A DNA stretch of 30,131 nucleotides from a virus: UHGV virus genome UHGV-0095463; one strand, written 5' to 3'. Below are positions 1 through 24,837 of this stretch, one piece after another. A program made the position numbers and the translations under genes. The notes under the pieces were generated by a model, which made no database searches, had not been told where the DNA came from, and saw only the letters and a program-made list of their open reading frames with translations. Each line of letters begins with the position of its first letter. The first letter of the stretch is position 1.

Positions 1-49
1 GCGTCCATCTTGCCTGTCGCCATCTTGAAATCATGCAAAGAGGTTTCAC

Positions 50-532
50 ATGGAAGAACTTCACTTTGTTTACATCAATGCAAATGGTCGTATCGCTGTT
101 CACTCTATACAGAGCATCAGTTATAGCGAAAATCATATACAGGGCATTTGTAAGAACACCGATCGAATAAAAACCTTCCGAAAAGACCGCATTCTTAAAC
201 AGTACGATTCACCAGAACAAGCCATTCAGGAATGCACGTCATTCCTCCCCGAAAGCTACTCACATCTCACTAAGCAGTCTGGTCCGAAAAAAAATACATT
301 CGATGTGTGTTTCACCGGATTTAAGAAAGCAGATAAAGAAAGATTGGTTGATAAGGCGAATGAACAAGGATTAACGGTAAGAACCTCTATAACCCAAAGC
401 CTTCAGATGCTCTGTTGCGGTTACAATGCAGGCCCATCAAAAGTATCGGCAGCCAGGATGAAAGGCACAATCATCATAGATGAGCCTGGCTTTATACATT
501 TTCTTGAAACGGGTGAGATCCCAGATGAATAA
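50..532 (+). CDS. Hypothetical small cargo protein (160 aa) with a WYL-like N-terminal motif and a BRCT-like C-terminal half
   Basis: Complete ORF with GAGG Shine-Dalgarno about 7 nt upstream of ATG at 50. N-terminal segment ...SISYSENHIQGICKNTDRIKTFRKDRI resembles the WYL-domain C-terminal signature (R-x-F-R-x-D-R-I). C-terminal FDVCFTGF...GLTVRTSITQSLQMLCCGYNAGPSKVSAARMKGTIIIDEPGF resembles a BRCT fold as in the ligase C-terminal domain. Visibly more AT-rich than the adjacent phage genes. Confidence 0.6.
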   Translation: MEELHFVYINANGRIAVHSIQSISYSENHIQGICKNTDRIKTFRKDRILKQYDSPEQAIQECTSFLPESYSHLTKQSGPKKNTFDVCFTGFKKADKERLVDKANEQGLTVRTSITQSLQMLCCGYNAGPSKVSAARMKGTIIIDEPGFIHFLETGEIPDE

Positions 533-533
533 A

Positions 534-551
534 AACCTGCCGTAGCAGGTT
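534..551. terminator. Bidirectional rho-independent terminator between the convergent cargo gene and ogr
   Basis: Hairpin AACCTGC-cgta-GCAGGTT immediately after the stop at 530-532, followed by CTCTTTCTC on the plus strand and by TTTTATTCA on the minus strand (downstream of the ogr stop at 559-561). Confidence 0.5.
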
Positions 552-558
552 CTCTTTC

Positions 559-777
559 TCAAAAATTCATATGCCCCTGACCACCTGGCAATGGATGTGG
601 AGGAGCAGTAGCAATCAGTGCGGGTGTCACAATAAACCGGACCACTGTTTCATGAGTAACAAAAGTGCTCCCGCAGTTAATATTTTGGCACTGGCAGTAA
701 CGCTCTTTGGTGCTTTCAGTTACTTGAAAACTGCTCCTTGTGTGTGCCGCATGACCACACTTTGGACAATTCATCAT
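559..777 (-). CDS. ogr: Ogr-type zinc-finger late-gene transcription activator
   Basis: Translation MMNCPKCGHAAHTRSS...ERYCQCQNINC has the C-x2-C...C-x4-C arrangement and the length (about 72 aa) of P2 Ogr / 186 B. Start placed at the internal Met pair (777 or 774), not the 87-aa ORF-track start at 822. Sits directly downstream of D as in P2. Confidence 0.85.
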   Translation of the reverse strand: MMNCPKCGHAAHTRSSFQVTESTKERYCQCQNINCGSTFVTHETVVRFIVTPALIATAPPHPLPGGQGHMNF

Positions 778-845: not shown

Positions 846-1946
846 TTATTCCATTTCAAGATCATCAATCTTCACTTCGAGTTCAATACTGGTTGTAAAA
901 CCGTTATCCGGGCTGACGGTATGTGTCAGAGTCGTAATGGTCCATTCCGCATCATCTATCGGCTGTTTAAAACCACTGACCTTCACAGGCATTTCCGTGT
1001 AGAGATCTGCCCGCCCTTCTGCCAGTTGTAGCGAAAATGACGCAACGCCGCGTTGCAGGCGTTCCCACTGCATTTTCGCCGCTCGTTCGGCGTTGCTCCG
1101 GTTGGCATAAGTGCGATTAAGTACCAGCACGTTTTCATCCGTACCCACCAGGTAATCACCCTGCTTCGCTTCTGGCTCTTTCTTCTGCTTCTTAGTTCTG
1201 CGCTTACGCTTCACCGTGGTGCTTTCTTTCTTCGCAGGTTCGCGGGTATGCAACCAGCTGGCAATTACGCCCGTGTAGGCTCCGCGATCTGCCAGGGTAA
1301 ATCGGTGACTGTCGCCGTCCTTGCGTGTGATAGTGATCACTGGCAGAGGTTTACCAGTGGCGCTTTTGCCCTGCCCCTGCCGGATGAATAACAGATTGCC
1401 ATTTTTCACCGACGCGATGGCACCGTACTGTCGCGCCAGCCGCATCAGAAAACTGCCGTCACTCTCATTAGTCTGGTCTATATGCTCCACGGGCTTATCC
1501 GACAGGTCTTTACCCAGTGCCATCTTCAGCTTGTGCCGCGCGGCTATTTCCTTCACCACTTCCCCGACGGTGGTCTTATGCCACGATTTTTCACGGCGGG
1601 TATTCAGCGTTTCCCGAAAATCAGCACTTCGCGCCCGGATAGTCAGGCGGTCCGGTGCGCCAGTGTGTTCAATCTCGTCCACTGTGAATGCCCCTTTCGG
1701 GAAAAGCGGCTGCCCCTTCCAGCCCAGCGCCAGCGTAATAACCGCACCACGGCGCGGCAGCACGATTTTTCCGTCAGCGTCATCCAGCTCCAGATCAAGC
1801 TGGTCCGCTTCAAAGCCCCGGTTATCCGTCAGCGTCAAACTCATCAGGCGGTTATCCAGCACAGTGGTGATATCCCTGCCCTCAATACTGATGCTGAATG
1901 CGGGAGTTTTGTTGCCTTTGTTAAGCAGTTCAGAGCTGAAATTCAC
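846..1946 (-). CDS. D: Tail protein gpD (late control gene D)
   Basis: 366-aa ORF in the conserved position after U and before ogr; size and order match P2 gpD. Confidence 0.8.
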   Translation of the reverse strand: MNFSSELLNKGNKTPAFSISIEGRDITTVLDNRLMSLTLTDNRGFEADQLDLELDDADGKIVLPRRGAVITLALGWKGQPLFPKGAFTVDEIEHTGAPDRLTIRARSADFRETLNTRREKSWHKTTVGEVVKEIAARHKLKMALGKDLSDKPVEHIDQTNESDGSFLMRLARQYGAIASVKNGNLLFIRQGQGKSATGKPLPVITITRKDGDSHRFTLADRGAYTGVIASWLHTREPAKKESTTVKRKRRTKKQKKEPEAKQGDYLVGTDENVLVLNRTYANRSNAERAAKMQWERLQRGVASFSLQLAEGRADLYTEMPVKVSGFKQPIDDAEWTITTLTHTVSPDNGFTTSIELEVKIDDLEME

Positions 1947-22627: not shown

Positions 22628-22924
22628 TTATTCTTTAATTAGTGCCCCCCATACGGAGTCCATATCAACTTCCTCAACTACAATGCAAATGGAGCAATGA
22701 ACATGACCATCAGCAATGCGTAGGTAATTGAAAAGCCTTGTTTTCACCCGCCCATCAAATTGAGCACGCCCACCCTTATTCGTAATTGTTACGTAGTCTC
22801 CCACATTTGGAAGCATCAAAAGCGAGTTGTCTTCTGAATTACACCCTACAACCTCTCCATCATCATCAGGGCGATCCTGACCTTTGCGCATATATTGAAA
22901 ATCATAGCTATAAGTAGTTTTCAT
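22628..22924 (-). CDS. Hypothetical 98-aa protein between the portal gene and cos
   Basis: AT-rich ORF. No convincing Shine-Dalgarno upstream and no recognisable motif (translation ...GDYVTITNKGGRAQFDGRVKTRLFNYLRIADGHVHCSICIVVEEVD...). Confidence 0.4.
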   Translation of the reverse strand: MKTTYSYDFQYMRKGQDRPDDDGEVVGCNSEDNSLLMLPNVGDYVTITNKGGRAQFDGRVKTRLFNYLRIADGHVHCSICIVVEEVDMDSVWGALIKE

Positions 22925-23129
22925 AAATGTCTTACTATTCCAATTTTTAACTAACCCAGAAGTTATATCTTAGACCTAAACTGTCTCAGTCACCGTTAAC
23001 TTCATCACAACGATTTAACACATCCTGCATGCCTATCTAACGTGAGAGCCGTTTATACCTACAAAACTAACTACGTTCCTGAGCCAGTAAATTGCGGTGG
23101 ATTTTGACCATTTTACCCCAGAGTGCGCG

Positions 23130-23148
23130 CTCGTATCCCCGCCACGCC
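23130..23148. other. cos-like site (cohesive-end region)
   Basis: Minus strand reads GGCGTGGCGGGGATACGAG. The first 13 nt match the 19-nt cohesive end I recall for phage 186 (GGCGTGGCGGGGAAAGCAT; P2 is GGCGAGGCGGGGAAAGCAC). Location after Q is as expected. Confidence 0.45.
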
Positions 23149-23196
23149 TGCCCGCTTTATGTAGTGGTTTTCATGCGCCTGCATGACATAAGCAAA

Positions 23197-23218
23197 GGCC
23201 CGCCATTCCTAGCGGGCC
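23197..23218 (-). terminator. Putative rho-independent terminator downstream of the 290-aa cargo gene
   Basis: Hairpin GGCCCGC-cattccta-GCGGGCC. On the minus strand it is followed by TTTGCTTAT. Confidence 0.45.
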
Positions 23219-23240
23219 TCAGCTAAAACGATCCTCAAAC

Positions 23241-23273
23241 GATCATGCGGATTCATGCGGCATAGTCATGCAC
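23241..23273. repeat. Three tandem 10-bp-periodic repeats (ATCATGCGG / ATTCATGCGG / AGTCATGCAC) next to cos
   Basis: Direct repeats of core TCATGC(G/A) at one-helical-turn spacing, with a fourth copy at about 23171-23177. Candidate terminase (cosB-like) or other protein-binding array. Confidence 0.4.
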
Positions 23274-23320
23274 TTGTGTGGTTACGAAGGAATATAGTTG
23301 CGAAAATCGATTAAAATGTC

Positions 23321-24193
23321 TTAAGCTCTCTTAATCAACCCCTTATGCGTTGCTTTGGTAAGATAAGCTAATTCTTTAGGCCCCTTATCTCTAAAGCCCA
23401 CCCATTCTGGTTGGAATTTTATAAAACTTGGAATTGCGGTTGCCAAGGCTGTAACCATACCGGGAATAATACCGCCTGAATAACCAGCAATAGCAGCATG
23501 GTACAACGGTTTTAAAAATTCCATAACCTGCCCACCATCTACTTCTGGATTGGCTTTGACTCCCATTCTGATAGGATTTCTCCATTTCCCTTCGATAGCT
23601 TTATCAAGATTAACTACAGCCTCTTGTAATAAAGAAAAATTTTTAGCCCTCGTTAGATTAGGGTCTCTAGAATAAAGGACTTCAGTATACAGTTTTTCTA
23701 AGTACTCATGTAACGCATTAAGATCATCCTGACAATCATCTTTAAAACGTAATATATCTTCTATATGAGCATCTTTATCAGGAATTCTCAGAACATTAAA
23801 CAACTCCAATCTCAACTGAAGGGCCGTTTTCTGTGCTTTATCATATATTAAATTTTCCCCTGTTTGATGAAAGTGCCAATAAGTAGCAGGCTCGTTCTTC
23901 CTGAATTCATCCAATGTCTGCAACTGAAATTCCGTATATAAAAATGGAAAGTCTTGGATATTCAGCATCCCATCATGTTTCATAATAGGTCTACGTAATA
24001 CCCCATTATCTAATAATTCTTTTTCTTTAGGCACAATCGAGTGAATATTTTCACTATCTAGAATAACCACATCATCCCAGTAAAAGCAGAAATAATTAAT
24101 ATCCTGCTCAGTTAAACCTGCCCCAAGATAGACCGTACTATTATTTCTATGAAAACTCATTTCATTAGGATTAGCTACAATACCACGTTTCAT
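23321..24193 (-). CDS. Unrecognised AT-rich cargo protein (290 aa), a candidate anti-phage / abortive-infection gene
   Basis: ATG at 24193 with AAGGAG 5 nt upstream (the ORF-track start at 24217 has no ribosome-binding site). Strongly AT-rich relative to the flanking phage genes, with AT-rich intergenic regions on both sides and a terminator hairpin downstream. C-terminal Gly/Ala-rich hydrophobic segment LYHAAIAGYSGGIIPGMVTALATAIPSFI. Sits between the tum-like module and cos, the position of the P2 old/tin cargo locus. Confidence 0.7.
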   Translation of the reverse strand: MKRGIVANPNEMSFHRNNSTVYLGAGLTEQDINYFCFYWDDVVILDSENIHSIVPKEKELLDNGVLRRPIMKHDGMLNIQDFPFLYTEFQLQTLDEFRKNEPATYWHFHQTGENLIYDKAQKTALQLRLELFNVLRIPDKDAHIEDILRFKDDCQDDLNALHEYLEKLYTEVLYSRDPNLTRAKNFSLLQEAVVNLDKAIEGKWRNPIRMGVKANPEVDGGQVMEFLKPLYHAAIAGYSGGIIPGMVTALATAIPSFIKFQPEWVGFRDKGPKELAYLTKATHKGLIKRA

Positions 24194-24404
24194 TCTTGCT
24201 CCTTGATAAGCATACACATTTTAAGAATGACATATATTCTAATAATTTCAATACATTATGAGTTATAACTAAAAGTGCAGCATAGGTCTCGCCCTGATAG
24301 ATAATCAAGTGATTACTGTCTTTTTACTTATGGTTAACGCCTCTCAAGGCTCGCGGTTCAACCTTGCTGACGCCAGAAGCAGGTTCAGACGCCAGCAACG
24401 TTTC

Positions 24405-24638
24405 TTAATGCAGCCAGCTGTCGTCTTCCCACACCTTCTGCATAATTTTCATCACTTGTTTTCTTTCTTCGTCCAGTTGCAATCCGGTAAGTTCCACACC
24501 GTTAGAGCTACCTTTGCGGATACGAATTACCGTTTTGGGATACAGGGGGCGCAGATTGCGGTAAAGCTCGGATTCAAGGGCGTCCAGTGTAGACTGGCTA
24601 ATCTTCTGCTCTTTATCGATCATTATTTCAATGCGCAT
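24405..24638 (-). CDS. DinI-like protein (77 aa)
   Basis: From the internal start MRIEIMIDKEQ... the protein ends ...QKVWEDDSWLH, resembling E. coli DinI (MRIEVTIAK...ETWESADDWF, about 80 aa). GAGGTGA Shine-Dalgarno upstream of ATG 24638. Confidence 0.75.
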   Translation of the reverse strand: MRIEIMIDKEQKISQSTLDALESELYRNLRPLYPKTVIRIRKGSSNGVELTGLQLDEERKQVMKIMQKVWEDDSWLH

Positions 24639-24648
24639 AAAAGTCACC

Positions 24649-24837
24649 TCAGCTGATGACATCCATTGAGCGGTTGTATTCGTGGGTTCTGATTTTTGCC
24701 ATGAGTTCATCTGTCAGTTCAGAAACCCACTGCAGAGCCAGCCCCTTCTCTTCATCACTACACTCACTAGCCGCTACAAGCTTAAGAAAAAAATCAATGC
24801 GCTGGAGCTTCAAAGACTCCAAAAAATAGTCCTGCAT
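24649..24837 (-). CDS. Small hypothetical protein (62 aa), possibly the N-terminal module of a Tum-like antirepressor
   Basis: Strong ribosome-binding site (AGGAGG, 4 nt spacer). Lies immediately downstream of a LexA box and immediately upstream of the DinI-like ORF in a different frame. Confidence 0.55.
   Translation of the reverse strand: MQDYFLESLKLQRIDFFLKLVAASECSDEEKGLALQWVSELTDELMAKIRTHEYNRSMDVIS

Follow-up and report, generated by a model that had tools for sequence, protein, structure and literature searches.

A small WYL-BRCT protein encoded behind the immunity repressor or across the attachment site of P2/186-like prophages

The rexAB genes of phage lambda are the classic example of genes expressed in the lysogen from the operon of the immunity repressor. 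The protein described here comes from a comparable lysogeny-side position in P2/186-like phages, and it joins two domains that have been studied separately. The WYL domains of CapW and DriD bind single-stranded DNA (ssDNA), and in E. coli CapW the contacting residues are S158, R180, R184 and R200 (PMC11662680). BRCT domains of the LigA/RFC1 class bind 5'-phosphorylated DNA ends without partner domains. For instance, the isolated RFC1 BRCT domain binds 5'-phosphate DNA at ~10 nM, especially when it carries a 3' ssDNA overhang, and it inhibits clamp loading at gaps (PMC9293009). The WYL-BRCT fusion itself has been noted before: Makarova et al. 2014, with reference to Anantharaman et al. 2012, give it one sentence, in which the same two-domain combination as ours is listed. 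Our searches of the literature for BRCT together with P2-like, prophage, anti-phage and WYL, and for the RefSeq accession, returned no study beyond this one sentence (PMC4012209), and in the literature searched neither it nor phrog_2561, the protein family discussed below, comes with a function, a ligand or a genomic rule. The original prediction, made from the DNA letters alone, likewise named no characterised phage function for the combination. As a genomic setting, the nearest comparison is with the hotspots for cargo that Rousset et al. 2022 (PMC9122126) described in P2-like phages: as in those hotspots, the gene is a variable, AT-rich accessory gene with alternatives in the same slot, but it has no whole-protein match to a defence system in PADLOC. 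The terms "ogr", "attachment site" and "BRCT" are absent from the main text of that study.

We analyzed a window of 30,131 nucleotides, the whole stretch of virus genome UHGV-0095463 under study, in which the WYL-BRCT gene converges with ogr (Table 1). It is preceded by a Shine-Dalgarno sequence (AAGAGG, 38-43) with the ATG 6 nt further on. At 41.2% GC (GC3 39.8%), it is poorer in G and C than the window as a whole (52.7%) and than gpD (53.9%, GC3 59.9%). The stop codons of the WYL-BRCT gene (530-532) and of ogr (559-561) are separated by 26 nt, within which lies the hairpin AACCTGC-CGTA-GCAGGTT; it scores as terminator-like at the equivalent place of a 99.9% identical E. coli locus, and its T-run is better on the ogr (-) side. 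The complete AT-rich plus-strand gene, its own ribosome-binding site and the bidirectional terminator shared with ogr had all been proposed beforehand, and each was borne out. Because the protein has 112 homologues in a word-indexed search and 197 clusters at E<=1e-30 in an exhaustive search, and because its AlphaFold model has a mean pLDDT of 91, we conclude that the gene is genuine. The pLDDT falls to 67 at residues 71-80, in the linker region, where insertions and deletions are also concentrated in the alignment of the homologues.

Table 1. Features at the left end of the window, with positions in the window
Feature	Position	Strand	Description or basis
5' leader preceding the WYL-BRCT start codon (attP P' arm)	1..49	+	sequence; alignment with Cartapus attP
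WYL-BRCT protein gene	50..532	+	ORF, 160 aa plus stop codon, ATG start
N-terminal WYL (Sm-like) domain	50..268	+	five strands (residues 3-52), two helices (55-73)
Motif K41-T-F-R-K-D-R-I48 in the WYL domain	170-193	+	
Flexible linker, residues 74-84	269..301	+	family-wide length variation
C-terminal BRCT domain, LigA/RFC1 type, residues 85-154	302..511	+	
Conserved BRCT residues	T89-G90, 314-319; K96; K131, 440-442	+	
Hairpin common to the convergent genes, terminator role	534..551	.	sequence; terminator-like score at the matching position of E. coli locus L003
ogr, late-gene activator, convergent neighbour	559..777	-	PF04606, 1.5e-20; RefSeq annotation in L003
gpD, tail/baseplate hub gene	846..1946	-	PF05954, 2.5e-27

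The N-terminal half of the model is an Sm-like five-stranded beta-barrel, which is the WYL fold, and its best structural matches are PafBC, CapW, BrxR and DriD. The R-T-F-R-x-D-R-I signature of these PF13280 proteins is kept as KTFRKDRI: the motif R-x-F-R-x-D-R-I on strands 4-5 is present as K41-T42-F43-R44-K45-D46-R47-I48, in register with RDFLLSRI of CapW. It is the most conserved stretch of the N-terminal domain, with T42 invariant and F43 and R44 at least 90% conserved among 43 homologues. The WYL-BRCT protein itself does not match PF13280 even at E<=10, and its link to the family is transitive: PF13280 is matched by 5 of the 43 close homologues (best 0.0018) and by 21 of 53 longer, more distant two-domain relatives (best E 1.2e-8). 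Searches of the N-terminal domain against PDB sequences, both as a single sequence and as a profile, returned no WYL protein (best E 0.26). Taken together, the barrel, the structural matches, the motif and the matches of the relatives uphold the WYL assignment of the original prediction.

In order to map the ssDNA contacts of CapW onto the protein, we used an hhalign alignment to the single CapW WYL sequence (24 columns, right register, probability 4.9%), which serves residue mapping and not homology. The CapW residues S158, R180, R184 and R200 correspond to N10, E27, Q31 and R47; the assignments of N10 and E27 lie beyond the hhalign block, were made by eye and are less certain than those of Q31 and R47. 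Only R47, the equivalent of R200, is retained, whereas the two arginines of the CapW RWHxR motif that contact ssDNA are E27 and Q31 here. Because only one of the four contact residues is kept, the ligand of the WYL domain may not be ssDNA.

Unlike the wHTH-WYL-WCX factors, the protein has neither a wHTH nor the WCX dimerisation domain and carries a fused BRCT domain instead. The barrel begins at residue 3, the BRCT domain lies at the end, and no HTH family matches. The original prediction had offered a sensor or regulator among its options, and a classical WYL transcription regulator of nearby defence cargo would agree with the WYL fold and with the variable cargo that lies nearby in several phages. 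However, the 160 residues are filled by WYL domain, linker and BRCT domain, and the E. coli gene has no companion in the interval from ssrA to ogr. The missing DNA-binding HTH speaks strongly against this option, which we consider very unlikely.

The C-terminal half has the alpha/beta fold of BRCT domains. Its score against the Pfam BRCT family (PF00533) is 18.6 bits, against a gathering score of 21.3, and the family is matched by 37 of the 43 homologues and by 43 of the 53 longer two-domain relatives (best 6.4e-46). When the family profile was compared with PDB sequences, the best matches were the BRCT domains of LigA (Thermus, 3.7e-5) and of RFC1 (human and yeast, 6e-5 to 1e-4). T89, G90 and K131 do not vary among the 43 homologues, and K96 reaches at least 90% conservation. 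These residues match, in the alignment, the TG and SK of the LigA and RFC1 domains, where phosphate-binding BRCT domains have Ser/Thr-Gly after strand 1 and Lys at the start of helix 2. The earlier reading of the C-terminal half as a BRCT fold is thus well founded. We take the TG...K positions to be the phosphate pocket, as in the RFC1/BRCA1 literature; judged by the conservation of these residues, the domain belongs to the phosphate-binding class of LigA, RFC1 (p140) and BRCA1, with the Thr-Gly ... Lys positions shared. Binding to DNA, as in that class, is predicted for the WYL-BRCT protein. Unlike LigA and RFC1, it has the BRCT domain without a ligase or AAA+ module.

This difference bears on the names under which the protein is found. 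It is a full-length member of phrog_2561 (E 4e-76), which PHROG and RefSeq phage records label "DNA ligase", and it is annotated as "putative exonuclease" in phage Cartapus; RefSeq also names it "BRCT domain-containing protein" or "hypothetical". What resemblance there is to LigA and a DEDDh exonuclease, which might favour an enzyme, is limited to the C-terminal BRCT regions of these proteins: the matches span residues ~34-153 of the WYL-BRCT protein and the last ~100 residues of proteins of 331-664 aa. The domain content refutes both identities, as there is no adenylation (KxDG), OB, Zn-finger, HhH or exonuclease domain. We therefore give an enzymatic reading next to no weight, and the "DNA ligase" label of phrog_2561 is a misnomer. 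More generally, the WYL domain, linker and BRCT domain account for all 160 residues and we found no catalytic, HTH or membrane domain. A search of NCBIfam returned matches to BRCT tails only, and PADLOC-DB 2.0 gave no match to the whole protein, only to the BRCT tail of PDC-S48 (4.1e-7, residues 83-153) and a marginal one to SspE.

The family is large. An exhaustive profile search returned 2,507 clusters (at 50% identity) with E<=1e-3, and most members are stand-alone proteins of 155-180 aa. About one third of the best 150 relatives are longer than this form; on visual inspection, the additions are membrane segments at the N-terminus, a second WYL-BRCT module in tandem, or either of two unassigned domains. 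Membrane-anchored relatives are P0164, P0186, P0190 and P0205 in our numbering, and tandem ones are P0157, P0159 and P0171. Five others (P0123, P0151, P0162, P0174 and P0185) have an extra C-terminal domain of ~200 aa that corresponds to the C-terminal half of phrog_36782. The extra domains fused in the longer relatives, examined for a Rosetta-stone clue to function, have no match in Pfam, in PDB or among annotated PHROGs (the function of phrog_36782 is unassigned).

To place the gene in its genomic context, we compared the phage Cartapus, which is circularly contiguous, with lysogens. The homology between phage and lysogen begins at the last 45 nt of ssrA (tmRNA) and, by way of a terminator hairpin and of TGGCGGCA and TGGCGACA repeats, reaches into the WYL-BRCT gene. 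This makes the gene part of the phage: it lies on the attP P' arm and, in the prophage, between att and ogr. The att core, which is these last 45 nt of ssrA, lies just beyond the left edge of the window and is followed, still left of the window, by the phage-supplied terminator hairpin with a 12-bp stem; the ATG lies 124 nt past the CCA end of ssrA. Searching this upstream flank for the core had been suggested with the original prediction, which supposed that the gene stood in place of the attachment site and that partner genes might lie directly upstream. Neither supposition survives: the attachment site is present, and the upstream gene in the lysogen is ssrA. A partner gene in the upstream position is accordingly rejected. 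In E. coli 4314, smpB is followed by ssrA, the WYL-BRCT gene, ogr and gpD; the order in the phage is cI, int, variable cargo, attP and WYL-BRCT gene, all in one direction, facing the convergent ogr.

The leader of the gene carries CTGTCGCCAT (15-24), an inverted copy of ATGGCGACAG located 7-16 nt left of the window. The two form a perfect 10-bp inverted repeat with 20-nt spacing (L003 5975-5994, 7-26 nt left of the window, and window 15-24), which is related to the direct repeats TGGCGGCA and TGGCG(A/G)CA. The latter repeats are conserved beside the ssrA core in an alignment of Cartapus attP with six other genera, and in the seven genera with the E. coli-type arrangement the leader abuts the TGGCG(G/A)CA repeats that flank the core. 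The leader repeats are probably arm-type sites of the integrase, and Int bound there could alter the expression of the WYL-BRCT gene.

Such proximity would suit a helper at att or cos, acting either as an accessory of Int at the P' arm or as a marker of nicks and gaps that, once the phage DNA has integrated, been excised or annealed at cos, brings in LigA or repair enzymes of the host. In Enterobacterales the gene is always in the cI-int-attP neighbourhood, its leader adjoins the repeats at the att core in the seven genera, and its BRCT domain is nearest to that of LigA. However, the loci of Mannheimia, Burkholderia, Marinobacter and Wohlfahrtiimonas have no adjacent integrase, P2, 186 and most E. 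coli P2-like prophages do without the gene, and to our knowledge tyrosine recombinases leave no 5'-phosphate nicks. We consider such a role a poor candidate.

How the gene is expressed in E. coli is less evident than in other genera. In the E. coli arrangement it lies behind the strong terminator hairpin in phage and prophage forms alike. A scan of the + strand from the ssrA terminator to the ATG found no sigma-70-like promoter, and the alignment of the seven genera shows no conserved -35/-10 elements in the ~90-nt leader. It might be transcribed there by read-through, either from the very active ssrA promoter or from the cI-int transcript. By its position in the sequence, the gene shares an operon with cI in most genera and should hence be expressed in the lysogen.

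To assess whether the gene belongs to the core of P2-like phages, we counted its occurrence among 5,426 complete E. coli genomes. The 3' end of gpD was matched by 1,312 of them, of which only 182 continue through the ogr allele of the window, and a query holding the gene was matched by 170-179 genomes, i.e. ~180 of the 1,312 with a gpD match. The 850 bp comprising the gene and ogr occur in 179 of the 5,426 genomes, and also in phages 500465-1 and Cartapus. In a typical P2-like prophage at ybjL, ogr directly adjoins host DNA. In the ssrA prophage of E. coli HS4, the slot of the WYL-BRCT gene is occupied by a different gene, which encodes a 237-aa hypothetical protein (WP_000347141.1; L021 2600-3313). 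In a collection of 50,697 phage records, tblastn recovered the gene in only 28. Because of this scarcity among gpD-matching E. coli, the alternative gene in the slot and the 28 phage records, we regard the gene as lineage-linked cargo and not as a core gene. A conserved core gene of all P2-like phages would have spoken against the original prediction, and comparing what occupies the site in related prophages, as had been proposed with it, thus pointed the other way.

A second variable slot follows int. It holds a 401-aa "RES" protein (phrog_7835) in Cartapus (L001 4557-5762) and a 222-aa hypothetical protein in E. coli 4314 (L073 12758-13426), so that two variable cargo slots flank attP in ssrA-integrating P2-like phages. 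The three cargo genes flanking attP (the HS4 237-aa, Cartapus RES and 4314 222-aa genes) have no Pfam or PADLOC assignment, and the same is true of the neighbouring cargo genes, with the exception of one TIR-like protein in Pectobacterium. We also observed variable genes elsewhere in these prophages. The slot between the portal gene and the replication gene gpA is the classical tin/old cargo position of P2; in the window (22631-24217, minus strand) it holds a DUF6236 protein (298 aa; phrog_23128) and a 98-aa ORF, both without a PADLOC match, and in the closely related prophage of E. coli 4314 (L073 3070-4669) a DUF4145 protein and a hypothetical gene. In E. coli CFSAN051542 (NZ_CP020835.1) an IS1B splits the 850-bp match in two, which means that the locus is disrupted in at least one strain.

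The context of the homologues in other genera is different. In six P2/186-like prophage lineages (Yersinia ruckeri, Xenorhabdus bovienii, two of Pectobacterium, Mannheimia PHL101 and Vibrio PV94) 3-34 nt separate the stop codon of the immunity repressor from the start of the homologue, which has the same orientation as the repressor and lies upstream of int, with zero to two cargo genes intervening. In Serratia and Burkholderia one small ORF lies between the homologue and an HTH repressor. Two unrelated kinds of repressor precede the homologues, 186-type CI and HTH with an S24 peptidase. A scan of one genome per species retrieved 43 two-domain loci. Six of these have the E. coli arrangement (att, gene, ogr) and 12 have a CI-like ORF as upstream neighbour; the remaining loci are mostly on metagenomic contigs, some with integrases, a McrB-like protein or AbiGi nearby. 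In an island of Candidatus Pseudothioglobus (L009 6001-7519) the homologue is convergent with the gene of an Mrr-type restriction endonuclease; the island also has a DNA methylase, AlpA and an integrase, a defence-island-like setting outside P2-like phages. In a Pectobacterium 186-like prophage (L018 5512-6444) the homologue is followed by the TIR-like gene, whose product matches a PADLOC TIR effector (1.1e-9) and, weakly, nucleoside 2-deoxyribosyltransferase. This gene suggests that the cI-int interval can hold defence cargo.

As with lambda rexAB, then, in most genera the gene lies directly 3' of the immunity repressor and on the same strand. The WYL-BRCT gene could, speculatively, be seen as a positional analogue of lambda rex. 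However, the protein has no kinship with the rexAB products in sequence or fold and has no membrane partner, and the E. coli gene has shifted across attP.

A position so close to the repressor also raises the possibility that the protein acts as its partner and tunes the SOS response or prophage induction, by sensing or masking ssDNA gaps or by contacting CI, and so sets the damage threshold. It might for example compete with RecFOR or with RecA loading at 5' junctions. In its operon the gene follows, within a few nucleotides, a repressor from either of two unrelated families, each of which answers RecA-dependent signals, and DriD, PafBC and CapW are WYL sensors of DNA damage and ssDNA. There is also a precedent for a sensor adjacent to a repressor, CapP+CapH, which is reportedly stimulated by ssDNA (PMC13228613). 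The prophage of the window has, in addition, invested in RecA-linked control through a DinI-family gene. However, that gene already supplies an SOS link, the WYL-BRCT protein has no domain able to cleave or modify a repressor, and the E. coli gene is set apart from cI by int, cargo and attP. On balance we hold this explanation possible and rather doubtful. The DinI-family ORF (24408-24710, minus strand; PF06183, 1.3e-22) adjoins gpA and may encode a Tum-like SOS-linked antirepressor, as in phage 186. If it is Tum-like, the prophage would be damage-inducible.

The kinship with the sensor domain of CapW and BrxR allows for a role against the host, which was another option of the original prediction. 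The protein would shield the phage's own DNA ends and gaps from host nucleases, or soak up the ssDNA signal that derepresses BrxR/CapW-controlled defence on induction. The protein shares its fold with the sensor domain of the CapW/BrxR-type repressors, for which ssDNA is the signal of prophage induction (PMC11662680), and a small protein without an effector domain would suit a decoy. However, R180 and R184 of CapW are not conserved, a BRCT domain is superfluous for a sponge, and placement in the lysogeny operon, not among early or lytic genes, speaks against a role during infection. We think counter-defence or self-protection of this kind unlikely.

The explanation that we tentatively prefer, with a probability of about 0.3, is that the gene is an accessory lysogeny-side gene of P2/186-like temperate phages and that its product, a small non-catalytic two-domain reader of nucleic-acid structure, serves superinfection exclusion. 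It is derived from the folds, the phosphate pocket, the preference of the RFC1 BRCT domain, ssDNA binding by CapW and DriD, the position behind the repressor and the status as cargo. The WYL domain would hold ssDNA or another anionic ligand and the BRCT domain a 5'-phosphorylated duplex end, so that the two together would read gaps, nicks or resected ends, working by occupancy or recruitment. More speculatively, the protein might be made together with the repressor, or in the same direction, and might occupy such junctions on incoming or replicating foreign phage DNA; sealing or processing would then be blocked and superinfecting phages excluded.

Several points count against exclusion. The protein as a whole matches no PADLOC defence model. 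A protein that caps nicks and gaps should harm the host too, and the position adjacent to cI suits several other roles equally. The main weaknesses are the partial loss of the ssDNA-contact residues of CapW and the putative nature of expression in E. coli lysogens.

A broader version would have the family represent a widespread, effector-less WYL-BRCT reader of ssDNA/5'-phosphate junctions and a new lysogen factor in the repressor operon. Such a reader would either set the damage threshold for induction by masking RecA-loading sites or exclude phages by occupying replication or cos-joining intermediates, and the membrane-anchored and tandem relatives would be variants in non-phage contexts. 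We consider this version rather unlikely.

The two-domain architecture had been listed before; the genomic rule (behind the repressor or across attP), the breadth of the family and the conserved phosphate pocket are new. Genes cotranscribed with the repressor are a classic source of exclusion, conversion and induction-control biology, and here a module built solely from a ligand or ssDNA sensor and a DNA-end binder turns up repeatedly after repressors of two unrelated kinds, in many genera and in hundreds of clusters. If the protein proved inert in phage and SOS assays, it would be an ordinary prophage gene without an assigned function. A demonstrated function would correct a widespread misannotation ("DNA ligase", "exonuclease" and "hypothetical") and define a role for WYL domains without the transcription-factor scaffold, and it could reveal a catalysis-free way in which prophages act on DNA intermediates.
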